A DNA stretch of 64,000 bases from Candidatus Omnitrophota bacterium. Its GTDB lineage: Bacteria; Omnitrophota; Gorgyraeia; Tantalellales; Tantalellaceae. The stretch covers positions 85,661-149,660 of the forward strand of contig JBAROK010000099.1 in NCBI GenBank assembly GCA_049642065.1, written 5' to 3'. Each line of letters begins with the position of its first letter. Within the stretch, counting starts at the first letter, position 1. This document shows, piece by piece, positions 20,492 through 59,768 of this stretch. The translations under genes were made by a program, and so were the position numbers. The notes beneath the pieces were generated by a model. That model was given only the letters and a program-made list of their open reading frames with translations, was not told the DNA's origin and did no database searches.

Positions 20492-21091
20492 CTATTCGCC
20501 TTCAGACATTATGCGTATGCGTTTTATCGGCCAGTGTATGAGGAAGGCTTTACCTACAAGATTTCTGTCGGGGACGAACCCCCAATACCTCGAATCCATT
20601 GAGTTTGCGCTGTTATCGCCAAGAGCATAAAAATATCCTTCCGGGACGTTTATGACTTTATCGCTCTCTCCGTATTCTCCCCTGTTGTAATAGAATATGC
20701 CCCTTAAAGGAGTCTCTTCCACTTTTTTCCCGTTCACAAAAAGTTCGCCATCCGTTATCTGCACGGACTGGCCGCCGCTAGCGATGAACCGTTTGACCAG
20801 ATATTTTTTCTTTTCTACCGGAGACGTAAATACTACGATGTCACCGATATGGGGCTCACGCACATCCGGAAGCCTTATGTTCGTCAGCGGTATCCTGGCA
20901 CCATACAAGAATTTGTTGACGAAGATCCTGTCCCCTGGTTTCAGCGTCGGGTACATAGAGTTTGACGGTATCTTGAAAGGTTGAACAATGAACGTCCTTA
21001 TGAACAAAGCAAGTACTGCCGCTATTAGTATAGGTTTGATCCATTCTTCCCACCAGTAGAGCCATGCGTTTCGGTTAAATTGAAATTTCAT
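20492..21091 (-). CDS. lepB: signal peptidase I
   Basis: S26 motifs ([20 protein letters not shown]). Start taken at [10 protein letters not shown], whose ATG overlaps the lepA stop as ATGA (21088-21091); the longer track ORF is an N-terminal shadow. Confidence 0.85.
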
Positions 21092-22887
21092 GAGATTCTC
21101 ATCGCTTTTAAGAACGCTTCTTTCGGGACGTCCACCTTCCCGATCCGGCGCATCTTCTTTTTCCCTTCCTTTTGTTTCTCCCAGAGTTTTCGTTTTCGTG
21201 TTATGTCCCCGCCGTAACATTTTCCCGTAACATGTTTCTTTAAGGCAGAGATGTTCTCTCTCGCCAGAACCTCCCCACCTACCGCTGCCTGCAGCGCTAC
21301 CTTGAAGAGATGCTTAGGGATCGTCTCCTTCAGCTTATGCACCAGCTCCATGCCCATACGCCTAGCCTTATCCTTGTGCACTATCGCCGAAAGAGCGTCA
21401 CAAGGGATAGCGTTTATGAGGATCTCAAGCTTAACGATATCCGAGCGCCTGTAACCTATAACCTCATAATCTAAAGAACCGTACCCTTGCGTGGACGATT
21501 TTATCTTATCGTAGAAATCTATTATTATCTCGGCAAGCGGAAGATTATACGTAAGCTGCACCTTTGTCGGATCCAGATACTTCGTGCTTACGAATTCGCC
21601 ACGCTTGCTTTCACATAATTTCATTAAAGCTCCCATCGAGTCAGCCGGAGCGAAAACATAACATCTCACAAAAGGTTCTTCAATATATTCGATATTCTCC
21701 TTTGGGGGATATTTCGTGGGGTTATCAACCTCTATCAACTCACCGTCAGTCAACTTCATCTTGTAATTAACGCTCGGCGATGATGCGATAAGATCAAGAT
21801 CGAATTCACGTTCGAGCCTTTCCTGGATGATCTCCATATGCAATAGCCCTAAAAATCCGCAACGAAACCCGAACCCAAGAGCTGCTGAAGTTTCAGGTTC
21901 GTATATGAAAGATGAATCCGAGAGGCGTAGTTTTTCCATAGCGCTTTTAAGATCCTCATAATCTTCGTTGCTTACAGGATAAATGCCGCTGTAAACCATG
22001 GGTTTCACCTGTTTATATCCCGACAGCGGCTCTTCCGAGGGATGCGCAACGTCAGCTATCGTGTCACCCACGACCACCTCTTTAGCTTCTTTAATATTGC
22101 AGACAATGTATCCTACCTGACCGCAATCAAGCTGATCAACAGACTGCTCGGTTGGCGTGAACACGCCGACTTCTTTTATTTCGTATTCAGTGCCCATATT
22201 CATCATCTCTATCTGCATACCACTTTTAAGGCAGCCGCTCATAACACGCACATAGATAATAACTCCCCTGTAGGTATCATATGAAGAATCAAATATAAGC
22301 GCCTGCAAAGGTGCGTCCTGTTTACCTGTCGGCGGAGGCACTCTCTTAACTATCTCTTCAAGCACTTCTTGCGTTCCCGTACCTTCCTTAGCACTTATAA
22401 GTATTATCTCATCCCCATCGACGCCAGCAATCTCTTCCATCTGGCGCGTGACTTCTTCTATCCTCGCACTTTTTAAGTCTATCTTGTTTATTATTGGGAT
22501 TATTTTCAGGTCATGCTCCATGGCAAGATACAAATTAGCGATCGTCTGGGCTTCAACGCCCTGAACCGCATCCACCACTAAAAGAGCTCCCTCACATGCG
22601 GCTATACTTTTTGAGACCTCATAGGAGAAATCTACGTGCCCCGGAGTATCTATGAGATTTAAAATGTAGGTGTTTCCGTCTTTTGCTTTGTAGATTATCC
22701 TGACCGCGCTGGACTTAATGGTTATTCCTCTTTCTCTCTCGAGGTCCATATTATCCAGGAACTGGTCACGGAATTCCCTGCCGTTGACGGTATCAGTAAG
22801 CTGTATGATCCTGTCGGCAAGAGTACTCTTGCCATGATCAATATGGGCAATTATGCAAAAATTCCTTATTCTTGAAAGGTTATCCAT
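21088..22887 (-). CDS. lepA: elongation factor 4 (LepA)
   Basis: 599 aa; G-domain AHIDHGKST and LepA-specific C-terminal domain. Confidence 0.95.
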
Positions 22888-44215: not shown

Positions 44216-47200
44216 TTACGCTCTTGAAGCTATATATTGGCGTATGTCTCTGTAAAGGCCTCTGTCTCCGGGAAGCTTGACCGCCCCGGGTATGAGTTTA
44301 ATGACCATTGTGGTCCTGTAGGTTTCTGTTACAGGGTCCCAACACCTTTGCCAGATGGCGTCATCATCCAGATTGAGACTGTTGCTTATGTTCCTGTAAC
44401 AGCGTATGAGGTTCTCCCTGTCATACTTGAGCGCGCGGGCAACCGTAAAGAGAACTATTTCTACTAACGGGTAATAAAAACCGTCCGTAAGTTCCTCATC
44501 ATCTATTCCGGTGATAGTTGAAGCGCCTTCAAACCCCTTGAAATACGCCTCGCGGTTCGTTTCGTTAGTGATTATTATGATGTTCTCCTTGCCTACATCG
44601 CCTCTATCTACAAGAGATTCCAAACCGCTCGAAAGAGAGTCGGCCTTGCCGTGGCGTATCACTACGTTACGCAGTAAATCGCTCAGCTGGTCATCCCCTA
44701 ACGCAAGATGGCTTAGCGCGTCCATTGTTTTGCGAAGCTGTTTTCGTGTCCAGCCAGAACCAAGTTCCTGGTCGATCGCTATAACTATTTTTTTGCCGTG
44801 ACCAGCTGTCATGAATCCATTCACCATTTCCGGTACCACGTGTTCCATCTTGCCCATTACGTCCGTACTGGGCAGCTCTTCGTAAGCGGGGCCGTCTGTA
44901 GCGGTAAACTCGTATTTCTTTTCATCAAGCTCCCAAAAACACGCACCGCCTTCGTCTTCAGCCAGCGTCTCCCATTCATAATCTGTATCATCAAAAACAA
45001 CGCTCTGCCATCCTTTTCTTTTGAACGGGAACTCATAATGTTCCCACAGGTTGACAGGCCTCAGTGATATCTTCATATTCCTGTATCTTCTTTCGATCCG
45101 GTCCTTATGCGAGGCGTAAAACAATTCTATCCCTAGGTCCTTAGCTGTATTGACCATACACCTCAGAGCGCTTTCTACCCATTTTCTGTGTCTCTCTCTG
45201 ACCTTACTATCGGTCATTTCCCTGTAACCCCTAGAAGCCTGCATTTCATCGAACACAATCGCCGGCCTTCTGTCTACAATCTCGAACTTGACCTCTATCT
45301 GGCCAAACGACCCTTCCGGACCGATAAACATCTGGGCCGCAGCCGCGTCAAGCACCCCAAGTTCCGGATGTTCTTCCCTGTAAGATGTTTCCGGAGCCAC
45401 AACAAAATTTTCAAAATCCTCGTCATATACAACAGTGGCATGTACTTTATGACCGCGAGCTATCCAGGAAATATCCTGTTTTTCACTAAAAACCTTAATA
45501 AACCGCGCTTCTATCTCTTCAATGTCCAGTCGCGATTTTTCTGTCCCCACCGGCTGGTCTGCTTCTAAAGATTCAACGAGAGCTTCTTCAGCATCTTCGT
45601 ATATATGTCTTTTTAGGTTCATGCGGACAGTCGTTCCACTGCCGGTTCCCGGTTGCGATGTGACTACGCCCTCTGGTATTCCATTAGCATCCCTTATCCC
45701 GTTGAACATGAGTTCCTTCCCTAAAGAAATTAAAGTAAGGCTGTCTTCATTGAGGTTTTTCAAAGGAATAGCAGCAACAAATATACCCCTGCCTCCGGGC
45801 AAGAAGAGACCTTCATCTTTGATATGTTTCATTTGCCTCATCATCCCACTGAGGTCGCATCCTATACCGTTATCTTTCGCAAAAAACTCTATAAGAATCT
45901 TGTCATCTTCACGTCGTGCCCTGCAAGCTATCACCCCAAAAACATCTCTCTCATTTTCGGCTATACCCTCCTTGGAATGCTCTATTATATTCAACGCGAA
46001 CTCTCCGAACGACTGCTTAAGCTCAAGAGCTTCATCAACCGAAAGGCCCATACCTGTTAGCCACTCGGTTACACTATACTGAAAAGCTATCAGCTTATCG
46101 GCCGGGGCATTAAGATGCTCCGCGTCTTTTATGCTTTGACCCATCAGGGCAATAGCTTTAATATCACTCTGTTCATTCACCTTAGCTAAGAGCTCTTCAG
46201 TCTTTTCGATAACTCCATATTCTACAGATTCTTCTAAATCACAGAACACGTCTTCCGAAAGTCCTACATCAAAATCTTCAGGAATCTCCTCAGGTTGAGG
46301 CCTGTTCCTGTAAATAAGCATACGTGTCTTTCCAAACCTTGCATCATCAACCATCTCCAGCCTGCTGAAAGGACCTCCCGGCATAGGACTATTAATAACA
46401 AACAGCGCTCCCGGCTTGAGTTCTCTTACCAACTTATCTTCAAGTCTTCTTTTCATCTCACGTTCCACATTCCTGTGATATAGCGGCCAGAATATGTACA
46501 CCAGATCGTACTGTGAAAAATCTTCATCAAAATAATTACCTTCCTCAAGCTCTACATTGCTCATATCCATCTTATCACTAAGATCACGTATACACGCTTC
46601 GCCTTCGGCATGTAAGGGTGCGTCCTGCTCTATACCTTTAACGTATCCGGCATACCTTGAGAAAATAGAAACAGCCTTGGCAGTCCCACTGCCAAGGTCA
46701 AGTGCACGTTTGTCTTCATCCAGGAATGCCTTTGCCACTAAGGCTATGTCTGGTGTCTTTGAAGAGGTAAAAATACCCCCTCTTGCTGTGGCTTTTGCCA
46801 CGGTGAGGGTTTTAGTGTTTTCCCCTGTCTGGTAATACCTGTCTATTAAACCAACGGCTTCATCGGGTGATCCCGGTACTTTTGAATGAGTAAGAACGTC
46901 TTTCAAGGTTACTCTTCCCAGTTTGGTGCCAGAAATGCCGCATATGATATGGCTTATAAAGGCTGGCACAAATGATTTTCTAAAGATCTTATTAAAAAAT
47001 CCGTCAATCACAGGATGCCTTCTGGCAAAGCCACGCACTCTCTTCCGGATCCAAACCTGTCTTGCAACTTCGTGAAGGATCGCGATTACAGCCAAAGCAC
47101 CAAGCACTACACCGATAGTGATACCGCTATCTGCAAAACCTAACCCTACTAATGAGTGTGCATAGGAAGTACGGCTCTCACCGGTATACGTAAGAGAACC

Positions 47201-50200
47201 CAAGTTCACATCCGGTATGTGGTCTACTACTGCAAACCCTTTATCCAAAGTATCAACGGTCATATCAATCTCTTCCTGCAATCCTGCTAAGAGAGCCCCT
47301 CTGTGACCACTCGGATGAGATATAGTCCTTATCATCTCTACCTCTATCTCTATCATCTTCTTGTGATTCGCAAGGATCCGCTCAAGAAACTTTATATTCG
47401 GTATAAACTCAATATAATCTTTTGCGAAGTTCATATACCCGATTGTCCTTACCCATTCGCGCGTACTTGTTAGCCTGTTCCGTAACCAATCAAGGATCTT
47501 TGCCGGATCAGACTCGGCATGGATCCTGTTATTCTCATCTTCCATTTCCAGGATCTCTCTACTAAGCTTTGACATCCGGCCGGTAATATCTTCTACCTTG
47601 ACTTTATCTTCACCCGCATTACCAAGCTCTACTCTCAAGGATCTGAGTTTATTGTGCGCAAAACCTGTCTCAATGTTACATCTCTCTACAGCCTGTGCTA
47701 ACAATAAATCCCTTTCTCCAAAAAGACGGAGAATCCTCGCAGCCAGTGCAGACATGTTCTCCGGATCCACCTCTATTAATTTCTCGAACGCTTCTTTTGT
47801 GATATATATATCACTTGTATCAACCTCTACATGCGTATCCTGCCCTGTCGAAAAGACAGGCGACTTAACATCACAGATGAATATACCTTTCTCTCCAGCC
47901 CGATAGTCCTTATCCGCGGAAAAGTTATCGAGTCTATTAGCTACAGTTTCGATAAACATGCGCTTCTCAACTGCTTTTGTCTTACTGGAATCATACGAAT
48001 CCCTGTGGGTATGAGCTTCTGCATACTGCCTCTCCATCTTCTGATATATATCTCTGAGGGTTTGGACCTGAGCATCCCTCATCTTTCGGAAGCTGCCAAG
48101 ATAATCTCCCCATAATGTTGAAAGCATCTTGGCATGCCCTTTCTTATATATTGTTTCATTTATTCCTATTTCTTTTCTGACTGTGTTAATAGCTCTCTGT
48201 ACAGTAAGCAGTTTTATCACCATCGCAGAATCAAGGTACCTGGCGGCACCCTTAGCGTTTCTGCTCTGCACGAATCCGTGCATATCATCCGTCACTAACT
48301 TTAAATGACGTTCTATTGCCACCCTTGATACTTCGACCACTCTAGCGTTAGCGTTATCTTCCCTGGCACCAAAAAGCCACCACATCATGACATTAATATT
48401 CTTCAAAATAACGTTTTCACGGGGATCAAGAGTATGCGTCTGCGAATACGTGTTGAGTTGTTCGAGACATTTCGCCATCCTGTAAACGTTCTCAAGGAAC
48501 ATGTCCAGCGACGCTTCGTCTATCCTGACTGTATCGACATTCTGAGTAAACTGAAGCATATGTTCGTAAGCTTCTTCTCCTGCGATTACTGTTGTATTAG
48601 ACCTAGAAAAAGATGATGGGTCACCTTGACTGCCAGCATCGTTAAGTAAATTTATTTCGGCCGCAATAGCATCCATCTTTGTCTTAATAGCGAAAATCTG
48701 CTTAGAAATACCCTGCATAGCGTTAAGATAAGTAGTTTCTTCCTCGCGTATCCTCATCGATTCTTTTCTCAGGTAAGATACCATGCTCCTTAACACGTTC
48801 TTGCCAAGCTTCTGTTCGGCGCCCTTAAGATGTGTGGTCTTTTTCTTGCTAAGACGTTTTATTTCTGCATCCAGTTTTTCGTGTTCACCCATAATGTCCA
48901 GATACCCCGGCATGGTACCAGCGGACCGCTTGGATCTACCCCCGAACAGGCTACCAACATCTTCACCTCTTCCGATACGAGATATACCCCGCATTCTTGT
49001 ATCCAGAGTTACTCCCACACCCGTCGCTTCTACCGCCCGGTTATGAGCTTCCGTCCAATGCATAGACGGGTTCAACCTCCTCTCTTGGACTTCTTTTAGC
49101 TCATGACTTATAACATCTTTATTCAGTTCAGACTGGAACCCTACTATCCTCCATATACCGTCAGAGCCTTTAAAATTTATCGCACTTACTCCGCCTTCGG
49201 GTTTTATTACCCGTCTGCGGACGGTCCTTGCCACCCTCATGATCGAGACGGCTAACTTTTCATCCACCGTAGTCTTATCGATATAATCAACTGTTTCATC
49301 CTTAATAGTAACTATCCAGGTCCCATCCTTAAATTCTCTCTCCGTAAGACCACGCTTGTCGAGATACCTTAGCCAGGCTTCTACAACATCCCCGCTAAAC
49401 GCCATACCTTTTTTATCCCTGAGTATACTAAGAATACTTTCTAAACGGTTAAACGCGCTTATATCGGAAACTTCTGCGCCAAGATCTTTTTCTGATGGGC
49501 CCTCTTCCGCCTTCGGTTCGGTTTCAACAGGACTACTTGAAGGTTCTTCAGGTTTTCTGTATATCGTTAATCTCCTTACATCTGGTACCGTAAATGGCGG
49601 TTCCACCTCTTCAAGCTCCGAAAATTTTTCGGTATCCGTGGCGCTTATTATCACAAAATGAGCTCCGGGCTTAAGTTCTTCTAAGAGTTTTTCCTGCAAT
49701 CTATCTTTTACATAATCCCTGTATTTGTCTTCACCGTATTCCGGCCAAAAAATATAAATAAGATCGTATTTTGAGAGGTCTTCATCAATAAGGCTACCGT
49801 AATACAGTTCTATCTTTCCGTTATCCACGATATCAGCAAGATCTACAACACAACTCTCACTTTCCGCGAGAAGACTAAGATCGTTTTCCACCCCCTTAAC
49901 ATGTCCGGCATACCGGGAGAATACCGCTACAGCTTTACCTGTGCCGCTACCCATATCAAGCGCGCTCTTATTCTCATCCAACAGCCACTCTGACAATAGC
50001 TTGAGATGCCCAGTGGGAGAAGCTATGAAATGTCCGTCACCTACGGTATGTTTATATCCAGTCACTCTCCCTGCTCCTTCACCTTCATCGTAATACCTGC
50101 CAATGTGCGCTACAGCTTCATCTTGAGAAAGCTTGCCTGAAATATCCTCCATCCCCACAGTCCGGCTGATAACATCATAAGACCTTTCCCTGGGAGATCC

Positions 50201-53200
50201 GTTCCAATGCCTGTATATCCATTCGCGGAGTATCCATATGCGTTCTTTAGTGCTCTTTATTGTTTCGGGAGGGAGTCCCGGAGTCAAACCCACCAGCATA
50301 TTCGTGTATATATCGTTCATGGTGGCTTTTGCACCGTTAAAAGCGGTTACTTTTCTCAAGTCCTTGCGAAACCAGTTGATTCCGGGATAATGCGACAGGA
50401 ATCTTTTCGCAAGATCATCCATTGAAAGTGCCGAATTTTCCTTAACGAACCCTTCTTCCCAGTCTTCTTCAAATATTCCCGGCCATTTCACAGGATTAAG
50501 CGCTTCGCCGATCAGCTGCCTGTATCTCTCCGCCATGTCACCTGTTAGCTTCCGCTGGGCTACGGTATCAATGTACTCTTTCCACATTTCGCGCCAATAT
50601 ATGTCAAGACGCGCAACGTCCGTAAGGTTCTCTACCTGGGGCGGAACTGACGCAACCTTTAAAAGCTCTCCCTCTTGTTCTTCGTTCAACCCTGCATCCT
50701 TTGACAAGGCGCTTAAGAACCTCCTCCAATGCACGCTTGAAAGTGCGTCTAAGCTGGTAAACCCTTTCAAATCATATTCAAGTAAAATTTCATACACATT
50801 AGCGTATTTCTTTTTCTTTTTCTCGATGGCTTTCGTAAGATCAGGTATACTGTCCGCTTCGATCATTCTTACCAAGTCAAGCATCGCCGGGAATAACGGA
50901 CTATCGATCTTTTTGGAGGGTTTCGCAGGATCAGGCATATTCATACTTACATACGCGGCAAGATAAAACGTTGTCCATAGAAGGCGTGGCGATCCCCTTC
51001 CTATATTATTATCGCGCGCAAATTTTAGATACCGGTTAAAGTCTTCGGTAAATATCCTGTCATAATACGCTTCAGCTTTTCCCTGAAGTCTTGCGTCCAC
51101 ATACTTCTCTCTTAATCCATCCATAAAGGAATCCAGAAGCACCATTGACCTAACTCTTTCTTTCATTATTCCGATATTTCTTCTTACAGTGTTTTCCTTG
51201 CCAGCAGTATCAATATTGTTTATAGCCTGCCATAACACGGGAAGCATGCGGTGGAATTCAGGTTCGCTTTTAATATCGTTATCACGGGTCATGCCCATCA
51301 TCCAGTCGCGTGCTTTCTGCCTGTTACCCGCCTCGAACATCTCGAGTATTCTATCCAGTTTCCATATAGTCCTGCTGTTGCGCGCACGTACGTACTCACG
51401 CAATATAGCAAGCCGGCCGGTTCTTATCTTATCTATCTGTTTAGTAAGCGAAAAATGACGTCTTCTGAGGAGGCTCCTTGCGGCCATCATCTCTTCCAGC
51501 ATGCTGCGATATTCGCCCAGATCCAATAGTTCCAGCGCGAATTCACAAGCGGTATGAGTAATAACCTTCTCCTCCACCTGGGCTCTTTTTAATGACTCTG
51601 TTATCTCTGAAAGCAATACCCTCATGCATTCTTTTTCTTCATCAGATACTTCCGGCTGCGGAAGAGGTTCTCCTGTTTTAGCAGAAGGAAGAGTTCTCCT
51701 CCTCTGGTCAAGAATATCTATATATTCCTTCATTCTCTTGCCGATACTAAGCACCCAGTCCCGTTCCCTGAGTATATTATCGATCTCCCTATCACATGAG
51801 CGTATACCCTGCCAGATAGTCTCAGATCTATGAGGTATCCATTCTTTTATAAGCACGTCCCTATCAGCGCTTATTCCATGGCTTATATACTGCCCGCGAA
51901 GCACATTATGGAGTTTATCTTCAACATCTTTCCAAACCCTTGGCCCACGCATTTTGACCTTCGTTTTGGACAGCTGTAGAAGCTCTTCTGCGAACCTCTG
52001 TTTAGCAGCACGAAGCAAAGCCGAGGCAGCAGGCTCGTTCTTCTTTTCCATCATTTCAATAGCCCTGCGCATTTTATCCTTGGCTTCTGCGCGATAATCC
52101 CTGTCCCCGGTACGCTTAAGCTCATAATCAGGCGGGGTTATAAGTTCTTCTTCCAGAGTTATCTCAGTTTTAAGAACCTGTATCCTTTGCTGGCATTTTT
52201 CAAGCTGTTCTTTCTTATCCGCGTTCTCTGGATCCTGTTTTAATTCTTTTTCCAGGGTAACCCTTTCAGCACCCAGACGTATAAGACGAAGGTTCATCTT
52301 CGGAAGAGCTCTGAGATAATAATAGGTAAGATCCTCCCCTTCAGCAAAGACTTGGCTGTCTAATTTCGCTTTTACCCATACCAGTTCTTCCTCGCTGGGC
52401 CTCGGTGAAAGCAAATCAAGAACTTTCCTTATCGAATCCAAATGCTTGCCAGCCCTGCGGTATCTTTCAGTGAGGGTAAATTCTATAGGTTCAAAAGGCT
52501 CTGAAGGCCTACCTGCGTTCAATATGCCCAGAGCTACCATACCGTCAAGTTCTGATTTTATCGTCCTGTAAGAAAAAGGGTTCCCATCTTCATTCAGTCT
52601 GCACGGTCCGAATGTAATGCTGGTGAAAACTGATTCCCTGAAGTCCTTGTTAGCCATTACTGTATTAAATCCATCAAGGACATTTCCCGAAGCCGGACGC
52701 CTTTTCTTCTTCTTTGCCATGCTCTCCGGCATCTCGGAATCCTCTTCTTCCGATTCTTCCTTTTCTTCCCGTCTGGTGCGATGTCCATGTCTTAACAAAA
52801 GAAGCACTGTAACCAGAAGCAGATATGGTATCAGTGTCCCAAAAATAGAATTAGAGGACATTTTGCCATCTGCCATACTGCAACTACCGCCTGAACGGCC
52901 TTCATCGGGAGACTGCCCTGCTGATATCGTTACAGGTGTTGAATAATCGCTGTCCCTTTGCGGGTCAGGCACTTCAGTGCGTATGCTAAGGTTATAAGTT
53001 CCCGAATAGATATGATCAGGAAGGTCTATGACGGCTGAGAAAGTTCCCGCACCTGCGATATAGAAAGTCTCCCCTCCTATATTAATGGTGTAACCTGTCA
53101 CAGATCCGGCCAATGCGCCCGTATACGGCTGCCAGGTAACTGTAAAGGTCCTGCTTCCGTTGCTGTCGGTCACACTCACTAAGTCTGGCGGGAACGGTCT

Positions 53201-56200
53201 TTGCGCTGCCGAATCGTACCAGTGCCTTATCGTATCGGCCTGAGGGTCTGTTATGGTAAAACCTGTAGTATCCTGCCAGAAGAGTCCACCACCATCAACG
53301 GCACTCCCATAGATATCGTCCAGTTTTCCTGAAACACCGGTCGGTTCAAGTTCCCCGAAAAAGAATCCAAAACTCGTTAGCCCGGAACCCCAGGTCGATA
53401 TATCATCCGTAAGAGGATACCACGGCACCATATAATCATAATAATGCGCCTGGTCAATATCCTGGCCAAGTCCTGTCCAGTTATCAAGAAGTATCTGCCG
53501 GCTCTGGGCCCCTATAGTAACTCGAGACCCGGAATCTTCCGCGTGTATCATATTAATGAAATCGGTTATAAAGATCTGTACCTGCGCGACGGTCAGGGAA
53601 GTAGAAGTGGTTATTTCTATAGGCTCGTTTAAAACGTCCCACATCTCTATCTCAGGACGTCCCGCATAACGCTGGATAAACGGCCTTATGACGTTGATCA
53701 AAGCGGCTCGCTTAGCATTATCTGTTATAAGATCCGGATATTCGCCTACCGGATTAGGCCCTTCCATGTTGATATTATCGGCTATCATGTAATCGAGTAC
53801 TACAGGGATAAGTCTTATTCCCAGAACCTGCGCCGCTTCCACAAGAGCATCCATATCGTCAAACACGTGTGTGCTTAGACCCGTAGGAGTTCCGCCACCA
53901 TCAAAAGTAACACCGCTTCTTAAGTCACAGAAAATAAATACACGTACCGCAGAGCCCTTGAACCTGTTGAGCTGCTGCAAAAGCTGCGCCCTTTTCGTGT
54001 TCAGCCCTTCGTATGTCTCACCGTTAACGCCGTCACCAATGTCGTACCCATACTTTAACCATGGCAGGTTAGCCCCGCGATAGAATTTCCAGCCCGGAGT
54101 TAATTCTTCCACTACTTCCTGTATATAATCATGCCTATCCTGCCTGCCGTCAGGATGATAAGCCATCATCTCCGTAAGATTCCAGGACCCGTCGTACTCA
54201 TAAGTACGTATAGTCCCATCAGTATCCCTTTCGGCGTTTACATACTGGTTACCCGAATCAAGATGATACGAAGCTCCCGCGCCACTGGTATAAGTTTTAA
54301 TAGCAAAAGTAGCACTTATCGTTTCGTAAACGAAAACCGGACTTCCTCCGGAGGTGTATCCTCTTATGTAATGTATGTTATCAGTTCCCGTGTAATATTC
54401 GTATTCCTCATAACTCCCGTCAGGATGCGTTTTCCTGTCAGGCCTTCCGTAATCGTCTGAAAGGTTGACGGGCGTACCGTTATCATAAAAAGCTTCATCT
54501 ATCCTATGAACAACGGTTCCCGCAGGCACATCGTCCGAAGGATCTGCCGGTGTATCACCATCCCAGTCATCTAGGTACGTTTCAGTTTCGATATATCCTG
54601 ACGGTGAATGATAAGTGTACGAAAGGTTCGCCGGCGCCGCAAAAGCCGTAAATGGTAAAAGCAATAAGACAAGTATAGAAAGAAGAGTATTCGGGAATAT
54701 ACGGTCTATACGGCTTTTTCTTTGTTTCGGCGTATCGGTCTCCCTCGCCCCCAACCCTTTTATCATGATCAGAATATGATAGATCTCCCACATCTTTTCG
54801 ACTTCGAAATATTCGAAATTCATGTTGCCAAGCTTTTTATGAAGAAGCCTGGCAACCTTAAGAAAGTTTACCTCTTTACCGCTGTCCAGAGCTTTCTTGA
54901 CCGTTAGGCCCTTCTCCAATTCTATGGTGTTCCATGGCACTCTACCGTCGGGTTCCGTGATAGTAAAGGTTCGGTACCCATCTTTCAACAAAAGACTGAT
55001 ATTAACACTTACCACTCCGAGCTTTTCTACAAGGTCTGGATAGAACGTATACGCAACTGCTTTATCCAGGAATATCTCCATACCCGGAGTATTAAAAAGT
55101 TCGTTCTTTTTAAGTTCATCACGCAACCTTTTATTTTTAGCTTTTTTCTCACGGGCTTCGCGCCACTCTTTCATGATGTTAGCTATACTTGCTTTTTTCT
55201 CACGAATATTATTCTTGCACCTTGCCAGAGTATCCGCTGCGAACTGCCGGATCCATATGACCAAACCCAACGGAGAATACCATAGAGCCACTCCCAGATT
55301 CCTTACTCTTACATCTACCTTGACCCGGTTTTTACCCGCTTTCCAACCGTAAACATGGATACCAGGCGCTATATGCTTGTAATACCCCCGGCTATCTTTC
55401 TTTATATCGTGATTAAGCCCTACTCTCCGGTGATCACCCTCGGGCAATAGCAGATACTTCTTCCATTCTTTTCTGGCCGTAACTATAGACATTAGCAGCT
55501 TTGCGTTCTTTACAGGTATGGCTACCACTAAAGCAATAATGACTCTACCTATTCCCCTCACGAGTATTATGGGAAGATACAATAGTTGGGCAAGGAATTT
55601 GAAAAATACCGTTTCTGTTCTAGCTTTTCCGTTCGCATCTTTTGACACCTCTACTACTACACCTCTGGCAATACTCACGAAATGGTTATACCCCTGGTAC
55701 CGGGCATTGTATCCGGCCTTCTCCTCCAACTTTCTACGTTCTTCCGGATCCTTTTCAAGAAGATATTTTTTGAGGAATATCTTCGCCTTGAGGATCTTCA
55801 CACACAGGTTCAGGTTCAGAAGAGCTATAATGCCAGCTCCTACTGTCAGGAACGCAGTGAACCCGCTGACCTCGGCAGGGAAAAACGGTACTGTTCCGTA
55901 CGCATAATTCCGCGGGTTGGGTCCACCACCTTTCGAATCCCAGAGCACTTTCTCAATATAAGTTTTCGTATCGAAAACTGATTGAGGGTCAATTTCATCG
56001 CCTAAGTTATAGAGAACGGTCCTTATAATCTCTATCCTGTCCTGCGGCAAGGTGTAAAACCTGTCATCCAGCTGGTATACCGGTGGTTTCATGCGCGAAG
56101 CAGTTGCACAAAGAACTCCCATCTTTCCCAGGAGTTCAAGCATATAAACCACCGTTCCCATCCCGAACTCTGACTGTCTTGCTTGCATAAATTCGGCTAC

Positions 56201-58372
56201 AGTAAAAGAATTCCTGCTCAAGATATCATCCGCCATCACAGCATCGAACACTTTAAGGATGTTGTTTCTTCTATCTACGAACTCCTGCGGAGGCTGCTCC
56301 TGGGCCGGGCTTACAATAGTTGGACCTTCTTGGGGTTTTATCAGAACGGGTTCTAGTGTACGTTTAGGTTGCGCTTGCGGCTTATTTGCCGGCTGCACCG
56401 GTTTCCTTACTATGCCTTGCTTAAGTTTTTCATCGATCATCCTCTCCCACAGAGGTTTCGCTTCTGTTTCCAGCCTAGCGCGTTCCCGTTTAGCATCTTC
56501 ATCGGAAAAATCCCTTATAGCCACCAGAAGCAAGTAAAGCTCTTCAGCATCAGCCGGTTTTGGATCCAATACGTTTACTGAAGCAGCCAGAGCACTGAGC
56601 ATCTTGTAAAGGCCCAAAAGATCATTGGGTTCCTTGTGCAGTAATACTGTTCCCAGCCTCTTCTTATCGCTTCCTACCTTCAGTGAATCAAGCGCCTTTG
56701 CCTGCGGCACCTTTATAAAATTATATCCATCATCCTGCACACGGCACATTTCCATACAAGCGCTGCGAAGATGTGTCATGACCGTGGAAACGGATTTTGT
56801 GCTAAGCCCCTGGGTAGCCCCTACTCTTGCTACCAGGTCTTTAAAATTCATATTCGAGAGCAACAATGTATCTTCCAGCATAGCCGTCAGCTGTTTTTCT
56901 CTCTCTGCTTTAACCTTCTTTTTCTTAAGTGCAAGCAATATCCTGACGGGAAAATATATAAAAAACATCCTGCGGCCTAAATACAAAGTTTCTGTACGTC
57001 CGGTCTTACTAAATCCTCTTGGAGTAAATACCCTGACGCCCCTGGTAATTACTATCGATAACCTGCCTTCTTTGGGCTGGATATTCCATTTAAACATCAG
57101 CTTTTTCTTTTTCTCCGCGTCCTCTTCAGCCATGTATTTTGAAAGGCGACCTTTAGCCCGGTATATCTTTACTAGGACCTTTACGTTATCAATAAGAAGT
57201 ATCGTCAGTATAAATGCCGGGATAAGAAGCCATGGGCTTATATTTGCCACTAAGGACATTGGGAGAACGGCTGGCGCGACAGAAAGGTCGGTATCGTCTT
57301 CATCCTCATCTGCTCCACCTTCTCTAGCTTTTCTTGTAAAAATATAATCGTATCCTGCTATGAGATCATATTGTTTCTGTTGTTTTATACTTGTCCTTGC
57401 CTCGAAAACAGCCCTTGAGTGAGAAGATTGTCTTAAAAACGCTATCCTGTCCTCTTCCTTTTCGACCCTGGTTCTCACGCTAACAACGGATCTTTGCATA
57501 TCTTCATAAACATATCCGCCGAGACCCGCGTTCATTTTCATTAATTCGTTGAGAGAGTACTGGAGATTAAGACCTTCAAACACTATTATCTGAACGCCCT
57601 TCCTGTGAGGCGTCCAAAGATCTCGACTGAGCCTAGGAATATTTATAGTCCGATCCGGCTTAACGTAATTGTCGATCGATATCACCTTACACGAGCTTAT
57701 TTTGTCCTTTATCCCTCGTGCAACAATAGTGGTCTTTCCCGAGCCCGGATTTCCATCAATAAGCACCATGACTTTTTTGCCGGAGCCAGTTACATCCTGT
57801 ATGCGGGTGATTATCGGATCGATCGTATCCGTTTTAACATCGCGTTGCAGTTTTTTAGCTTTTTTCTTTATGGGCGCAGGAGAAGCTTCCTTCTCCTCTT
57901 TCTTTAAAAGCTGGCAGCTCAGATAATCGTTTATGGTCTTTTCCCATGCCACTTTCGTAATACCATCAGGCAAAACTAGTCCCGTCATGCGTGGGTTAAA
58001 ATATCTCAGAACACAATCATCCGATATGCGGACAAATACCTGCCCTTCCTCGGCGCCACCTTCCACGCGGATACTCGGCTGGTCTAATTGTTCGGAAGCG
58101 ATCTTGCGGATACGATCCAGCATCTCTTGCACTCCGGCAAGCGGCATATTCCTGAAATCCTTTGACATTACCAGTTCCAGATATTTAGCCGTAGCCCTGG
58201 CTATAGAGTCTGAAGTATCGTCTGAAGTTAAGAGTGTCTGTTGTGCAAGAGTATTTACTGAAGGTCTTGAGGAAGGATATGCCCATGCAAAATCGTAGGA
58301 AATAAAGCATATAAGCGTTATTACCGCGACTACACGAAACAGTATTCTTTGTCTGGTCCTCTCCAAAAACAT
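44216..58372 (-). CDS. giant (4718 aa) multidomain polytopic membrane protein
   Basis: Single uninterrupted 14,157-nt ORF on the minus strand. Domains in order: N-terminal signal-anchor TM; uridine-kinase/PRK-like P-loop (Walker A GNPGSGKTT); several TM helices; extracytoplasmic segment with YD-repeat-like motifs, a clan GH-A (GH5 mannanase-like) core (RGANLPW, WDVLNEP, HYY, GELEP) and a beta-rich Ig/FN3-like region; long helical cytoplasmic regions; two duplicated PCMT-like SAM-methyltransferase modules (IASPTGH...LDMGSGTGKAV and LDLGSGTAKAV); a GHKL ATPase-like module (DNGIG, GGRGIF). Confidence 0.85.
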   Translation of the reverse strand: MFLERTRQRILFRVVAVITLICFISYDFAWAYPSSRPSVNTLAQQTLLTSDDTSDSIARATAKYLELVMSKDFRNMPLAGVQEMLDRIRKIASEQLDQPSIRVEGGAEEGQVFVRISDDCVLRYFNPRMTGLVLPDGITKVAWEKTINDYLSCQLLKKEEKEASPAPIKKKAKKLQRDVKTDTIDPIITRIQDVTGSGKKVMVLIDGNPGSGKTTIVARGIKDKISSCKVISIDNYVKPDRTINIPRLSRDLWTPHRKGVQIIVFEGLNLQYSLNELMKMNAGLGGYVYEDMQRSVVSVRTRVEKEEDRIAFLRQSSHSRAVFEARTSIKQQKQYDLIAGYDYIFTRKAREGGADEDEDDTDLSVAPAVLPMSLVANISPWLLIPAFILTILLIDNVKVLVKIYRAKGRLSKYMAEEDAEKKKKLMFKWNIQPKEGRLSIVITRGVRVFTPRGFSKTGRTETLYLGRRMFFIYFPVRILLALKKKKVKAEREKQLTAMLEDTLLLSNMNFKDLVARVGATQGLSTKSVSTVMTHLRSACMEMCRVQDDGYNFIKVPQAKALDSLKVGSDKKRLGTVLLHKEPNDLLGLYKMLSALAASVNVLDPKPADAEELYLLLVAIRDFSDEDAKRERARLETEAKPLWERMIDEKLKQGIVRKPVQPANKPQAQPKRTLEPVLIKPQEGPTIVSPAQEQPPQEFVDRRNNILKVFDAVMADDILSRNSFTVAEFMQARQSEFGMGTVVYMLELLGKMGVLCATASRMKPPVYQLDDRFYTLPQDRIEIIRTVLYNLGDEIDPQSVFDTKTYIEKVLWDSKGGGPNPRNYAYGTVPFFPAEVSGFTAFLTVGAGIIALLNLNLCVKILKAKIFLKKYLLEKDPEERRKLEEKAGYNARYQGYNHFVSIARGVVVEVSKDANGKARTETVFFKFLAQLLYLPIILVRGIGRVIIALVVAIPVKNAKLLMSIVTARKEWKKYLLLPEGDHRRVGLNHDIKKDSRGYYKHIAPGIHVYGWKAGKNRVKVDVRVRNLGVALWYSPLGLVIWIRQFAADTLARCKNNIREKKASIANIMKEWREAREKKAKNKRLRDELKKNELFNTPGMEIFLDKAVAYTFYPDLVEKLGVVSVNISLLLKDGYRTFTITEPDGRVPWNTIELEKGLTVKKALDSGKEVNFLKVARLLHKKLGNMNFEYFEVEKMWEIYHILIMIKGLGARETDTPKQRKSRIDRIFPNTLLSILVLLLLPFTAFAAPANLSYTYHSPSGYIETETYLDDWDGDTPADPSDDVPAGTVVHRIDEAFYDNGTPVNLSDDYGRPDRKTHPDGSYEEYEYYTGTDNIHYIRGYTSGGSPVFVYETISATFAIKTYTSGAGASYHLDSGNQYVNAERDTDGTIRTYEYDGSWNLTEMMAYHPDGRQDRHDYIQEVVEELTPGWKFYRGANLPWLKYGYDIGDGVNGETYEGLNTKRAQLLQQLNRFKGSAVRVFIFCDLRSGVTFDGGGTPTGLSTHVFDDMDALVEAAQVLGIRLIPVVLDYMIADNINMEGPNPVGEYPDLITDNAKRAALINVIRPFIQRYAGRPEIEMWDVLNEPIEITTSTSLTVAQVQIFITDFINMIHAEDSGSRVTIGAQSRQILLDNWTGLGQDIDQAHYYDYMVPWYPLTDDISTWGSGLTSFGFFFGELEPTGVSGKLDDIYGSAVDGGGLFWQDTTGFTITDPQADTIRHWYDSAAQRPFPPDLVSVTDSNGSRTFTVTWQPYTGALAGSVTGYTINIGGETFYIAGAGTFSAVIDLPDHIYSGTYNLSIRTEVPDPQRDSDYSTPVTISAGQSPDEGRSGGSCSMADGKMSSNSIFGTLIPYLLLVTVLLLLRHGHRTRREEKEESEEEDSEMPESMAKKKKRRPASGNVLDGFNTVMANKDFRESVFTSITFGPCRLNEDGNPFSYRTIKSELDGMVALGILNAGRPSEPFEPIEFTLTERYRRAGKHLDSIRKVLDLLSPRPSEEELVWVKAKLDSQVFAEGEDLTYYYLRALPKMNLRLIRLGAERVTLEKELKQDPENADKKEQLEKCQQRIQVLKTEITLEEELITPPDYELKRTGDRDYRAEAKDKMRRAIEMMEKKNEPAASALLRAAKQRFAEELLQLSKTKVKMRGPRVWKDVEDKLHNVLRGQYISHGISADRDVLIKEWIPHRSETIWQGIRSCDREIDNILRERDWVLSIGKRMKEYIDILDQRRRTLPSAKTGEPLPQPEVSDEEKECMRVLLSEITESLKRAQVEEKVITHTACEFALELLDLGEYRSMLEEMMAARSLLRRRHFSLTKQIDKIRTGRLAILREYVRARNSRTIWKLDRILEMFEAGNRQKARDWMMGMTRDNDIKSEPEFHRMLPVLWQAINNIDTAGKENTVRRNIGIMKERVRSMVLLDSFMDGLREKYVDARLQGKAEAYYDRIFTEDFNRYLKFARDNNIGRGSPRLLWTTFYLAAYVSMNMPDPAKPSKKIDSPLFPAMLDLVRMIEADSIPDLTKAIEKKKKKYANVYEILLEYDLKGFTSLDALSSVHWRRFLSALSKDAGLNEEQEGELLKVASVPPQVENLTDVARLDIYWREMWKEYIDTVAQRKLTGDMAERYRQLIGEALNPVKWPGIFEEDWEEGFVKENSALSMDDLAKRFLSHYPGINWFRKDLRKVTAFNGAKATMNDIYTNMLVGLTPGLPPETIKSTKERIWILREWIYRHWNGSPRERSYDVISRTVGMEDISGKLSQDEAVAHIGRYYDEGEGAGRVTGYKHTVGDGHFIASPTGHLKLLSEWLLDENKSALDMGSGTGKAVAVFSRYAGHVKGVENDLSLLAESESCVVDLADIVDNGKIELYYGSLIDEDLSKYDLIYIFWPEYGEDKYRDYVKDRLQEKLLEELKPGAHFVIISATDTEKFSELEEVEPPFTVPDVRRLTIYRKPEEPSSSPVETEPKAEEGPSEKDLGAEVSDISAFNRLESILSILRDKKGMAFSGDVVEAWLRYLDKRGLTEREFKDGTWIVTIKDETVDYIDKTTVDEKLAVSIMRVARTVRRRVIKPEGGVSAINFKGSDGIWRIVGFQSELNKDVISHELKEVQERRLNPSMHWTEAHNRAVEATGVGVTLDTRMRGISRIGRGEDVGSLFGGRSKRSAGTMPGYLDIMGEHEKLDAEIKRLSKKKTTHLKGAEQKLGKNVLRSMVSYLRKESMRIREEETTYLNAMQGISKQIFAIKTKMDAIAAEINLLNDAGSQGDPSSFSRSNTTVIAGEEAYEHMLQFTQNVDTVRIDEASLDMFLENVYRMAKCLEQLNTYSQTHTLDPRENVILKNINVMMWWLFGAREDNANARVVEVSRVAIERHLKLVTDDMHGFVQSRNAKGAARYLDSAMVIKLLTVQRAINTVRKEIGINETIYKKGHAKMLSTLWGDYLGSFRKMRDAQVQTLRDIYQKMERQYAEAHTHRDSYDSSKTKAVEKRMFIETVANRLDNFSADKDYRAGEKGIFICDVKSPVFSTGQDTHVEVDTSDIYITKEAFEKLIEVDPENMSALAARILRLFGERDLLLAQAVERCNIETGFAHNKLRSLRVELGNAGEDKVKVEDITGRMSKLSREILEMEDENNRIHAESDPAKILDWLRNRLTSTREWVRTIGYMNFAKDYIEFIPNIKFLERILANHKKMIEIEVEMIRTISHPSGHRGALLAGLQEEIDMTVDTLDKGFAVVDHIPDVNLGSLTYTGESRTSYAHSLVGLGFADSGITIGVVLGALAVIAILHEVARQVWIRKRVRGFARRHPVIDGFFNKIFRKSFVPAFISHIICGISGTKLGRVTLKDVLTHSKVPGSPDEAVGLIDRYYQTGENTKTLTVAKATARGGIFTSSKTPDIALVAKAFLDEDKRALDLGSGTAKAVSIFSRYAGYVKGIEQDAPLHAEGEACIRDLSDKMDMSNVELEEGNYFDEDFSQYDLVYIFWPLYHRNVEREMKRRLEDKLVRELKPGALFVINSPMPGGPFSRLEMVDDARFGKTRMLIYRNRPQPEEIPEDFDVGLSEDVFCDLEESVEYGVIEKTEELLAKVNEQSDIKAIALMGQSIKDAEHLNAPADKLIAFQYSVTEWLTGMGLSVDEALELKQSFGEFALNIIEHSKEGIAENERDVFGVIACRARREDDKILIEFFAKDNGIGCDLSGMMRQMKHIKDEGLFLPGGRGIFVAAIPLKNLNEDSLTLISLGKELMFNGIRDANGIPEGVVTSQPGTGSGTTVRMNLKRHIYEDAEEALVESLEADQPVGTEKSRLDIEEIEARFIKVFSEKQDISWIARGHKVHATVVYDEDFENFVVAPETSYREEHPELGVLDAAAAQMFIGPEGSFGQIEVKFEIVDRRPAIVFDEMQASRGYREMTDSKVRERHRKWVESALRCMVNTAKDLGIELFYASHKDRIERRYRNMKISLRPVNLWEHYEFPFKRKGWQSVVFDDTDYEWETLAEDEGGACFWELDEKKYEFTATDGPAYEELPSTDVMGKMEHVVPEMVNGFMTAGHGKKIVIAIDQELGSGWTRKQLRKTMDALSHLALGDDQLSDLLRNVVIRHGKADSLSSGLESLVDRGDVGKENIIIITNETNREAYFKGFEGASTITGIDDEELTDGFYYPLVEIVLFTVARALKYDRENLIRCYRNISNSLNLDDDAIWQRCWDPVTETYRTTMVIKLIPGAVKLPGDRGLYRDIRQYIASRA

Positions 58373-58440
58373 ACTTTTCCTTATATTAAAAACTTGATTC
58401 GTCTAGGTGTTTTTTCTCTTAACCTTTATAAGTTTATAAT

Positions 58441-58469
58441 ACTATAGCACTTATAATATAGAATGTCAA
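58441..58469 (-). promoter_or_regulatory. sigma70-like promoter for the giant gene (-35 TTGACA, 17-nt spacer, -10 TATAGT) in the AT-rich divergent intergenic region
   Basis: Minus-strand reading CCAATTGACATTCTATATTATAAGTGCTATAGT; the AAGGAAAAGT RBS precedes the ATG at 58372. Confidence 0.45.
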
Positions 58470-58562
58470 TTGGCTTTTCTGGCTATTTTATAACTTAACT
58501 TTTATTCTCTTAACCCCTTTAAGATATTGACTTTAAAAGGGTATTGTTATAAACTTTTTTAT

Positions 58563-59768
58563 ATGCGAAAGATTGAAAAATTGCAAAAAGAGGACCTTTC
58601 AAAAGCTGACCTCGAGCAGCTTTTTGAAAAAACAAAGAACGAGCTGGCGATGCTGTCTGAGATCACTCACGCTATCATGCAATCGCTTGAACTTGACCAG
58701 GTTCTCTATACCATACTTACCGCGCTTACCTCACATGAAGGATTGGGCTTCGACAGGGGCATGTTCTTTCTTATTAACGAAGAGAACAACTCCCTTGAAG
58801 GAAAGATGGGGTTAGGACCCCTTTCTATCGAAGAGGTTGAAAAAGGCTGGCATAAAATGGCAGATCCCAGGTTCACTCTGCAAAACCTTATGAACGCTTA
58901 CCTGGAATTTAAAACAGCTCCAGAATCAAAGCTGAACGGTGTGATAAAAAGTATATCCCTCCCCCTGCGGGAAGACGCCGGCATACTAGTACTTACGGGC
59001 CTCGAAGGAATGCCGTTTGAGATTAATAACGAAGAAGCGAGATCTTTAGTCAACCGTCAGATCGAAAACCTTTTGAATTTAAAGAATTTCGCAACAGTAC
59101 CGCTTAAGACAAGGAACCGCACTCTAGGCGTGATAGCCGTTGATAATATCTTTTCAGAAAACCCTATAACAAAAGATAATATCCGCATACTGAACATGTT
59201 CGCCGATCACGCGGCTCTTGCTATAGAAAATTCAAGGCTCTACGGAGAAACCGTTCACCTTTCCAGGACCGACTGGCTTACCGGATTGTGGAATACGCGT
59301 TATTTTAATAACGTGCTGGACAGCGCCTTAAAAGACGCTGCAGACGAAGAGACTTGCCTCAGTCTCCTGATGATAGACATAGATAATTTCAAGAAATATA
59401 ACGATACCCTGGGACATCAAAAAGGCGACCAGGCTATCAAAAAGGTCGCACATCTCCTTGACTCTTCTTCCCGGAAAAGCGATTTCGTGTGCCGTTACGG
59501 CGGCGAAGAGTTCTGCGTAATAATGTCGGAAATCGATAAGAGCGATGCAAAAATGATCGCTGAAAGGCTGCGCGAAAAAGTTGAGGATTCATTCAAGAAT
59601 GATGACTCTACACCCGAGGAACTTAAACTTACCGTAAGCCTTGGGCTTGCCACTTTCCCGTATGACGGATCCGAGAAGAAGGACCTTATACAGAACGCGG
59701 ATCTTGCGCTTTACCACGCTAAACAAAGCGGAAAAAACAGGACCTGTCAATACCCCGTTGGAACCTAA
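58563..59768 (+). CDS. GAF-domain diguanylate cyclase (GGDEF)
   Basis: C-terminal GGDEF domain with intact active site RYGGEEF and an N-terminal GAF-like region. ATG at 58563 preferred over the upstream TTG of the track ORF. Confidence 0.85.
   Translation: MRKIEKLQKEDLSKADLEQLFEKTKNELAMLSEITHAIMQSLELDQVLYTILTALTSHEGLGFDRGMFFLINEENNSLEGKMGLGPLSIEEVEKGWHKMADPRFTLQNLMNAYLEFKTAPESKLNGVIKSISLPLREDAGILVLTGLEGMPFEINNEEARSLVNRQIENLLNLKNFATVPLKTRNRTLGVIAVDNIFSENPITKDNIRILNMFADHAALAIENSRLYGETVHLSRTDWLTGLWNTRYFNNVLDSALKDAADEETCLSLLMIDIDNFKKYNDTLGHQKGDQAIKKVAHLLDSSSRKSDFVCRYGGEEFCVIMSEIDKSDAKMIAERLREKVEDSFKNDDSTPEELKLTVSLGLATFPYDGSEKKDLIQNADLALYHAKQSGKNRTCQYPVGT

Follow-up and report, generated by a model that had tools for sequence, protein, structure and literature searches.

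A 64,000-nt stretch of a Candidatus Omnitrophota contig (JBAROK010000099.1), which as a whole we call the window, carries a gene for a 4718-amino-acid (aa) protein, and the question it raises is whether one chain strung together from domains that normally occur in unrelated proteins is a real gene product and, if so, what kind of protein it represents. Omnitrophota are widespread, ultra-small and mostly uncultured bacteria, and their very long genes are unexplained. We find that the giant gene is a genuine, vertically inherited Omnitrophota gene, and that the two ends of its product, here termed head and tail, define at the level of sequence a family, at least 209 protein clusters in size, in which the ends are fixed and the modules between them shuffled. 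What is new here is this head-cargo-tail family together with a fixed chromosomal slot; the family is apparently undescribed, in the limited sense that it is not found by term searches of West-Roberts et al. 2023 (10.1101/2023.11.21.568195) and Nielsen & Lui 2026 (10.64898/2026.06.07.730766) and that the literature was not searched by sequence.

The gene lies on the minus strand, so that the protein runs from 58372 down to 44216, a correction to an earlier reading of the letters without database searches (the sequence-only reading), where it is listed as 44216-58372. That reading had described a single uninterrupted open reading frame (ORF) with a good promoter and ribosome-binding site (RBS), and this description holds: the translation contains no stop other than the terminal one, and recognizable expression signals precede the start.

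44216..58372, minus strand: whole ORF, 4718 aa plus stop, ATG start (ORF listing and translation)
58378..58382, minus strand: Shine-Dalgarno sequence AAGGA, 5 nt upstream of the ATG (read from the sequence)
58441..58469, minus strand: sigma-70-like promoter TTGACA-17-TATAGT with extended-10 TG, score 11/12

Located about 70 nt upstream of the ATG (58469-58441), the promoter is the top-scoring sigma-70-like site within 43-60 kb; promoter-like sites in the region are in total not above chance, and this one is supported by where it ranks and where it lies. Chance cannot produce an open frame of about 4,700 codons at 45% guanine plus cytosine (GC). GC content within the ORF is 0.44-0.47, equal to the remainder of the window, and Tandem Repeats Finder reports no tandem DNA repeats in it. 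The NCBI annotation of the identical protein is two codons shorter (4716 aa, beginning MERTRQ; window 58367-58372); the JGI and GF409 orthologues start at the upstream ATG, whose spacing from the RBS is correct. CinA begins 40 nt past the giant-gene stop with no terminator seen in between, so that co-transcription of the two genes is likely.

Searching with the whole protein recovered a 100% identical entry from a Candidatus Omnitrophota metagenome-assembled genome (MAG; WBD00_07825), so that the gene belongs to the phylum with whose giant genes the sequence-only reading had compared it. The syntenic homologues that were sought proved to exist in other Omnitrophota MAGs at 88%, 54% and about 56% (partial) identity, in the slot SMC / giant / CinA-LigT-RecA. 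The two closest, P0002 (88% identity, 5404 aa, JGI) and P0003 (54%, 4986 aa, Omnitrophica), are each encoded by a single ORF and, one insertion apiece excepted, are collinear with the window protein from end to end (BLAST). Their loci share with the window the order MerR, SMC, divergent GAF-GGDEF, giant, CinA, LigT/ThpR, RecA, RecX, AlaRS and his operon. In a fourth genome (L003, CAZMEZ010000001.1), a C-terminal part 56% identical to the window protein is followed by CinA (63%), LigT (67%) and RecA (83%). The ratio of nonsynonymous to synonymous substitution rates (dN/dS) against the 88% orthologue is 0.04-0.26 in 18 of 19 defined segments, the remaining hel2 block being unscorable through saturation of dS. 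Orthologues, synteny and dN/dS therefore exclude, for practical purposes, an assembly artefact or a decayed operon. The record of the fourth genome is titled 'uncultured Planctomycetia bacterium', a taxonomic label that is probably wrong given how closely its RecA resembles that of the window and that the giant-CinA-LigT-RecA order is the same.

The family is defined by the two ends of the protein, the first of which is preceded by a predicted signal peptide.

58277..58372, minus strand: aa 1-32, predicted Sec-type signal peptide (family statistics and alignment)
57848..58276, minus strand: aa 33-175, family head, two helices and a 5-stranded sheet with an 'RYFNP' motif
44219..44875, minus strand: aa 4500-4718, family tail, Rossmann-like α/β, ending in IASRA

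Family members are cluster representatives (50% identity clusters) from an exhaustive profile search with the tail, which returned 209 representatives at E<=1e-3 and 119 at <=1e-10, ranging from fragments of less than 100 aa up to proteins of 6377 aa. Among the 150 matches listed, the tail ends within 24 aa of the C-terminus in three quarters and never more than 70 aa from it. The head is likewise N-terminal in 81 of the 106 tail hits that have a Met start and at least 600 aa (657-6377 aa), and several of the remaining 25 are visibly truncated at contig ends. In the window protein, aa 1-165 match the hidden Markov model (HMM) of the head at E 2e-51, and the final 217 aa match that of the tail at E 2e-133. 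Neither end has a Pfam match in the 34 members tested for each. The tail, whose AlphaFold2 (AF2) model has a predicted local distance difference test (pLDDT) score above 90, has no PDB sequence match either, and its fold matches are generic. Reading it as the C-terminal domain of type IX secretion system (T9SS) cargo or as an autotransporter barrel was rejected, the tail being α/β, as was reading it as a receiver or Toprim domain, whose motif order does not fit. Tail proteins nearly always end in Ala (SRA, TAA, RKA or NA) at the last tail helix (window 44219-44233), a candidate degron, processing signal or recognition signal.

What lies between the ends varies widely. A weakly matching member, P0004 (5146 aa), shares with the window protein only its first ~170 and last ~240 residues and carries DeoC, HD, metallo-β-lactamase, PD-(D/E)XK and PRTase domains in its middle, while small members enclose HATPase_c, CofD, GH130 or a Ser/Thr kinase (Pkinase). 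The modules of the window protein turn up elsewhere in the family in other orders, among them the hairpin, winged-helix-like, hel1, methyltransferase, GHKL and GNAT-like modules and the whole GH5 cassette described below. In two more distant Omnitrophota genomes, members also occur in tandem, as tail, stop, head, in the SMC...CinA-RecA slot (L004 1-11948; L005 8001-35134): in the former a 6814-aa tail-ended protein and, 58 nt on, a 1315-aa head-HATPase-CofD-tail protein precede CinA-RecA, and in the latter a 6377-aa member follows SMC and is separated by 4 nt from another head-bearing gene. Five members have a source record that names an organism; four of these are Omnitrophota, one (P0027) being from the window's own MAG, and the taxonomic range of the family thus rests on few named cluster members.

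The N-terminus resembles a cleavable Sec signal peptide, with a predicted n-region MFLERTRQRILFR, a 12-aa h-region, a c-region YDFAWA and a putative signal peptidase I site AWA/YP at residues 31/32. Across the family, K+R residues average 3.4 on the N side of the apolar core and 0.95 on its C side, the core has a median length of 12 aa with a polar residue next, and 61 of 80 members have a 'W-A-x-P' or AxA-like site. Two other kinds of signal were rejected, the type IV pilin-like one for want of a G/F-E motif and the Tat one for want of a twin-arginine motif.

The most conserved part of the window protein is a glycoside hydrolase of family GH5, set within a cassette bounded by two transmembrane (TM) helices.

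54629..54688, minus strand: aa 1229-1248, TM5, signal-like helix opening the cassette, N-flank net charge +4
54098..54628, minus strand: aa 1249-1425, β-rich YD/RHS-like region with two YD-type motifs
53198..54097, minus strand: aa 1426-1725, GH5 (clan GH-A) glycoside hydrolase, closest to endo-β-1,4-mannanases
52913..53197, minus strand: aa 1726-1820, FN3/Ig-like β domain (Ig_RIMBP2, E 6e-4, 20.2 bits against a cut-off of 27)
52787..52852, minus strand: aa 1841-1862, TM6, stop-transfer helix closing the cassette, K/R-rich C flank

The GH5 call is one of sequence and profile evidence. Searched singly against PDB sequences (phmmer), aa 1429-1589 match four solved GH5 β-mannanases at E 1.6e-7 to 1.2e-4, and a profile of 8 homologues matches 5y6t at E 5.7e-37 (chain residues 17-355, about 300 aa aligned) and 2c0h, 3vup and 4oou at E 1e-28 to 1e-35. 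The predicted acid/base E1583 lies in NEP (1582-1584) and the predicted nucleophile E1674 in GELE (1673-1676), which aligns with GEF of 5y6t; all 8 aligned sequences share NEP, R and other hallmark residues without variation, and the catalytic Glu pair is intact. The GH5 domain is 78% identical to that of P0003 and has a dN/dS of 0.06; for the cassette as a whole the identity is 77-78%, compared with 54% overall, and dN/dS is 0.06-0.08. PF00150 (Cellulase) gives no match in the window protein at E<=1 but is carried by a Nannocystis homologue (P0009) that is 43% identical across the N-terminal half of the barrel. The domain thus resembles solved GH5 endo-β-1,4-mannanases (5y6t, 2c0h, 3vup, 4oou) in its aligned (β/α)8 barrel and its NEP and GE motifs, and differs from them in escaping PF00150 and in forming an internal loop of a giant membrane protein, between TM helices and beside YD-like and FN3-like neighbours.

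Flank charges of TM5 and TM6 put the 590-aa cassette loop outside the cytoplasm, and the TM-YD-GH5-FN3-TM cassette recurs as a unit in P0013 and P0061. From these flank charges, the movement of the cassette as a unit and its highest conservation, we infer a membrane-tethered extracytoplasmic endo-β-glycanase. A GH5-like core in an exported loop had been proposed from the letters alone and is upheld by the profile match and the aligned NEP and GE motifs, while its two proposed neighbours fare less well. The YD-like call is likewise weak, with two motifs present and a homologue (P0007) that carries PF05593 RHS_repeat, although the region has no Pfam match in the window protein itself; the Ig/FN3-like domain, at a score below its cut-off, is weakly supported.

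The remaining modules, which by their sequences look like protein-modifying or nucleotide-binding enzymes interspersed with helical and membrane segments, are as follows.

57248..57847, minus strand: aa 176-375, P-loop NTPase-like region, Walker A GNPGSGKT at 207-214
55223..57247, minus strand: aa 376-1050, three membrane-hairpin modules (hydrophobicity and flank charges)
50153..52786, minus strand: aa 1863-2740, winged-helix-like module, then helical 'hel1' (no Pfam match)
49538..50152, minus strand: aa 2741-2945, S-adenosylmethionine (SAM) methyltransferase module 1 (MT1), PCMT-like, motif I ALDMGSGTG at 2804-2812
47153..49537, minus strand: aa 2946-3740, linker and helical 'hel2', mosaic, divergent from about aa 3130
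47060..47143, minus strand: aa 3744-3771, TM7, C flank +6 K/R, conserved in P0002, P0003 and P0011
46268..46870, minus strand: aa 3835-4035, SAM methyltransferase module 2 (MT2), motif I ALDLGSGTA at 3890-3898
45578..46105, minus strand: aa 4090-4265, GHKL ATPase/kinase-like module of RsbW/SpoIIAB type (motifs and sub-threshold PF13581)
44918..45565, minus strand: aa 4270-4485, GNAT-like fold ('pre-tail'; structural similarity of a confident model)

For the first of these, earlier called a uridine-kinase/PRK-like P-loop, the Walker A motif stands and the kinase label is not established. Matches to Zeta_toxin, nSTAND3, udk and NRK1 are all sub-threshold, accompany a low-confidence structure model and span only ~40-65 aa around Walker A (udk 12.8 vs 220 bits; PRK09270 14.7 vs 227; NRK1 E 0.011); they are spread over the nucleoside-kinase, Zeta-toxin and STAND families, with STAND and Zeta-toxin models scoring as high as the nucleoside kinases. 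The P-loop region is common to the two orthologues only. The hairpin copies, at about aa 376-485, 836-940 and 940-1046, each consist of a strong TM segment, a ~60-aa basic loop and a weaker hydrophobic segment, and match one another and P0013; a 335-aa region between copies has winged-helix-like repeats, as predicted from reading the sequence. What had been described as a first coiled-coil-like helical block is a conserved family module, hel1, which recurs in 14 other long proteins (P0005 and P0006 included), and the winged-helix module recurs in 6.

The two modules previously labelled PCMT-like are indeed two class I SAM methyltransferases, and the match covers only the SAM-binding third of the PCMT model. 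They are paralogous, at ~47% identity, and the acidic residue after β2 can be read in them as GVEND and GIEQD. Pfam PCMT (PF01135) reaches 32.2 bits (cut-off 20.3) over 2 stretches that take in only profile positions 53-121 of 210; NCBIfam pimt scores 19.9 vs 159 bits, and the nearest PDB sequences are phosphoethanolamine N-methyltransferases (E 0.013). Because the profile match is partial, the pimt score low and the PDB neighbours of another kind, we file the modules as class I SAM methyltransferases, PCMT-like, and not as PCMT. In P0003 (L001) motif I of MT1 is degenerate (VLAVNTRDGKA in place of ALDMGSGTGKA), and MT1 is the segment least conserved against that orthologue, at 35% identity; MT1 may therefore be inactive there with MT2 kept.

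One 'SSSPV' motif follows MT1 at aa 2945-2948 (window 49529-49540, minus strand), and P0005 (7967 aa) has at least 15 motifs of the SSSP[VI] type between nearly all of its enzyme domains; such motifs could be linkers or processing sites. The hel2 region falls in a mosaic block at about aa 3130-3820 (window 46913-48985, minus strand), where identity to P0002 drops from 98% to ~43% within ~100 aa and is back at 92% near aa 3820. The block has saturated dS, compared with 0.1-0.4 beyond its limits, and P0002 has ~670 extra aa there that end in a β-sandwich-like stretch just before TM7. The block looks like the product of recombination with a divergent allele, or a variable cassette.

The GHKL module named in the sequence-only reading has its N-box (EFALNIIEH, 4124-4132), G1 box (DNGIG, 4167-4171) and G2 box (GGRGI, 4193-4197), although PF13581 (E 0.0017) remains at 18.8 bits, under its cut-off of 27.4, and precomputed PF13581/PF02518 matches of the orthologues are graded 'weak' or 'faint'. 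These boxes are shared with the RsbW/SpoIIAB anti-sigma serine kinases (HATPase_c_2, PF13581), the best Pfam match of the region, and JGI names the 88% orthologue an RsbW/SpoIIAB-type kinase. Unlike those kinases, the module lies below the gathering threshold and is fused inside a giant chain, and neither the giant gene nor its neighbourhood shows a STAS-type partner or a sigma factor.

The C-terminal ~470 aa, which had defied assignment, resolve into a GNAT-like fold and the family-defining tail. The pre-tail has no Pfam match in any member carrying it, its profile has no PDB sequence match, and the Q/RxxGxG/A acetyl-CoA motif is not clearly present, the sequence reading QASRGYR; it is thus modelled as a GNAT-like fold, without sequence-level membership of GNAT.

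Next to the giant gene, on the opposite strand, lies a gene for a predicted signalling enzyme, and a signal peptidase gene is found elsewhere in the window.

58527..59768, plus strand: divergent GAF-GGDEF diguanylate cyclase gene, adjoining the giant gene in two close orthologous loci
20492-21220, within the window: LepB, signal peptidase I gene

Counterparts of the GAF-GGDEF gene occur at L001 8602-9810 and L002 5626-6831. The L005 locus has no separate GGDEF gene, and the family member found there, P0061, itself contains PAS-GGDEF (aa 5873-6011), its GGDEF domain being 36.5% identical to that of the window. The gene hints at a link between the giant gene and cyclic di-GMP (c-di-GMP) signalling, which is possible on the strength of gene neighbourhood and this fusion and would imply a functional tie between the two genes. 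The other window genes are housekeeping (Tex, UvrB, ValRS, LeuA, LepA, LepB, Der, his, trp), and no type II secretion system (T2SS), pilus or PilZ genes are found within the 64-kb window. The minus strand carries all substantial window genes except the GGDEF gene, and GC skew stays negative from end to end (window 1-64000), which fits co-oriented housekeeping genes of a single replichore.

How might such a protein work? Seven strong hydrophobic segments, preceded by the signal-peptide-like N-terminus, bear out the description of a composite multi-pass membrane protein, and we lean to the explanation that it is a resident of the membrane, a multi-enzyme assembly in a single chain, with the chances for and against evenly balanced. 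The exported GH5 domain would then act in the periplasm or on the cell surface, where it would cut a β-linked glycan of the mannan or glucan type, either of the bacterium's own envelope or of a host or prey cell, and the methyltransferase, kinase-like and acetyltransferase-like modules would modify proteins across the membrane from it, possibly with a c-di-GMP signalling tie through the neighbouring GAF-GGDEF gene. Head and tail would serve as targeting, docking or assembly modules for the whole family and not as cargo. The function proposed in the sequence-only reading, a surface-remodelling or signalling machine, is plausible from the domains that the sequence predicts.

Several observations weigh against this explanation. 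Positive-inside reasoning yields no self-consistent topology: a lone TM helix separates the two paralogous methyltransferases, so that they fall on opposite sides, and simple alternation puts the C-terminal 950 aa (MT2, GHKL, GNAT-like and tail) outside the cytoplasm, while the flank charge of TM7 (+6 on the C side) implies that the C side is inside, contradicting that alternation. SAM, ATP and acetyl-CoA are absent outside the cytoplasm. An excess of even internal TM counts across the family would fix the side on which the tail lies; counts made with a crude Kyte-Doolittle caller show no such bias (p 0.26-1). The GHKL, P-loop, FN3 and YD calls lie under curated thresholds; Pfam, PDB sequence and fold searches detect no homologue of head or tail with a known function, so that the role given to the ends is conjectural; and the GGDEF link consists of shared gene order in two close relatives plus a single fusion (36.5% identity). 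Finally, about half of the family (35-45 of 80 members) lacks any hydrophobic segment after the signal peptide yet carries ATP-dependent enzymes, a combination that is easier to reconcile with export of the entire protein than with a cytoplasmic enzyme scaffold.

It is possible, if somewhat unlikely, that the head-tail proteins are instead exported or delivered effectors, which would pass through Sec and then have head and/or tail read by a second-step secretion or attachment system. Their ATP- and SAM-dependent cargo would act in a host or prey cell, and the hydrophobic hairpins of the 4718-aa member would insert into the target's or its own outer layers. The canonical tripartite signal peptide with an AxA-like site across the family speaks for this, as do the members without another hydrophobic segment and the Pkinase, HATPase_c and CofD cargo just mentioned; the nucleases, HD, DeoC and PRTase of P0004 would suit scavenging of prey nucleic acids, and alternation of the TM helices likewise leaves the tail of the window protein outside. 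A predatory or episymbiotic lifestyle has been proposed for the phylum in published work, which also places secretion systems beside giant genes. Against such delivery, however, neither the window nor the orthologous loci contain T2SS, type IV pilus (T4P) or other secretion genes, the neighbourhood being one of housekeeping; the seven strong TM helices favour a resident membrane protein; and the tail, a 220-aa Rossmann-like α/β domain, is unlike known C-terminal sorting or translocator domains.

The nearest formal parallel for such a layout is analogy only. T9SS substrates combine an N-terminal signal peptide, a variable passenger and a conserved C-terminal domain, and the head-tail proteins resemble them and autotransporters in combining a Sec signal peptide with enzyme cargo that varies greatly and with a conserved domain that sits at the C-terminus or very close to it. 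They differ in that the tail is Rossmann-like α/β, neither a T9SS β-sandwich nor a β-barrel, in that a conserved head is also present, and in that no such secretion genes lie nearby. More speculatively, and in our estimate rather doubtfully, the signal-peptide/head and the tail would be the recognition or docking ends of an Omnitrophota-specific system that exports, attaches to the surface or assembles head-to-tail a set of interchangeable cargos; these would include kinases, methyltransferases, nucleases and glycanases, with the 4718-aa protein among the system's largest membrane-embedded members.

We regard as improbable a third possibility, that the chain is a polyprotein, translated once and cut at its linkers into enzymes of ordinary size, so that the architecture as a whole has no function. 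Acidic, low-complexity linkers do separate the modules, with the one SSSPV motif here and the 15 or more in P0005, and cleavage by C39/S8 peptidases has been raised for larger giants by West-Roberts et al. (10.1101/2023.11.21.568195). Set against this, Pfam and NCBIfam detect no peptidase domain in the window protein, head and tail are strictly terminal across the family, which suggests selection on the intact chain, and tandem family genes retain their separate stops and starts with no fusion. That the gene is a chimeric assembly or a stop-losing run of ordinary genes in one MAG has the slimmest chance of all and is effectively refuted, for although its source is a metagenome-assembled genome and the block at aa ~3130-3820 is mosaic against the closest relative, the same collinear single ORF stands in independent NCBI and JGI assemblies (88%, 54%) with identical synteny, under purifying selection in all 18 scorable segments, with uniform GC and no repeats.

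The membrane-resident explanation also sets the protein beside long proteins already reported from the phylum. West-Roberts et al. describe Omnitrophota proteins of more than 30 thousand amino acids (kAA), among them the 'Archaeovorin' type, and Nielsen & Lui describe Omnitrophota proteins of at least 10 kAA, with class 1 'multi-enzyme clusters' and a Pfam co-occurrence Module 1. In both, methyltransferase, HATPase, GNAT, HD and glycoside-hydrolase domains are tiled between many TM segments, and most giants have a signal peptide or TM segments and are flanked by T2SS/pilus genes and PilZ. The earlier statement that the architecture matches no characterised family was overstated, since two preprints describe comparable proteins, and the likeness to Omnitrophota giant genes is confirmed by shared phylum, enzyme mix and TM segments.

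The window protein is of the same kind as the published long multi-enzyme proteins. Both are single ORFs tiling unrelated enzymes (methyltransferase, HATPase, GNAT, glycoside hydrolase), with a signal peptide, about one TM segment per several hundred residues, divergent domains mostly invisible to Pfam, and a GGDEF association. With the Archaeovorin type the window protein shares an Omnitrophota origin, many TM segments and the pairing of methyltransferase and glycosyl hydrolase; unlike that type it has no upstream T2SS/T4P cluster and no downstream PilZ, its context being housekeeping genes. It differs further in size, at 4.7 kAA falling under the size cut-offs of both catalogues, in domains, with no SecA_DEAD, C39/S8 peptidase, glycosyltransferase or NUDIX by Pfam, and in its conserved head and tail ends, term searches of West-Roberts et al. 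and Nielsen & Lui finding no mention of conserved N- or C-terminal modules.

The locus offers a tractable entry point to these proteins, at 4.7 kAA compared with giants of 30-150 kAA, with orthologues at several distances and a catalytically intact GH5 cassette that can be assayed. The head and tail unite long proteins that look unrelated in a single family of at least 209 clusters, and thereby make testable how such proteins are targeted, whether ATP- and SAM-dependent domains work outside the producer cell, and how giant genes at a fixed chromosomal slot grow through the shuffling of modules. Should the ends prove to be secretion or docking signals, they would represent a new protein-sorting system; otherwise, the giant gene is a well-documented member of an already reported phenomenon. 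Were the docking role of head and tail to prove true, it would amount to a new principle of secretion or assembly in ultra-small, host-dependent bacteria.

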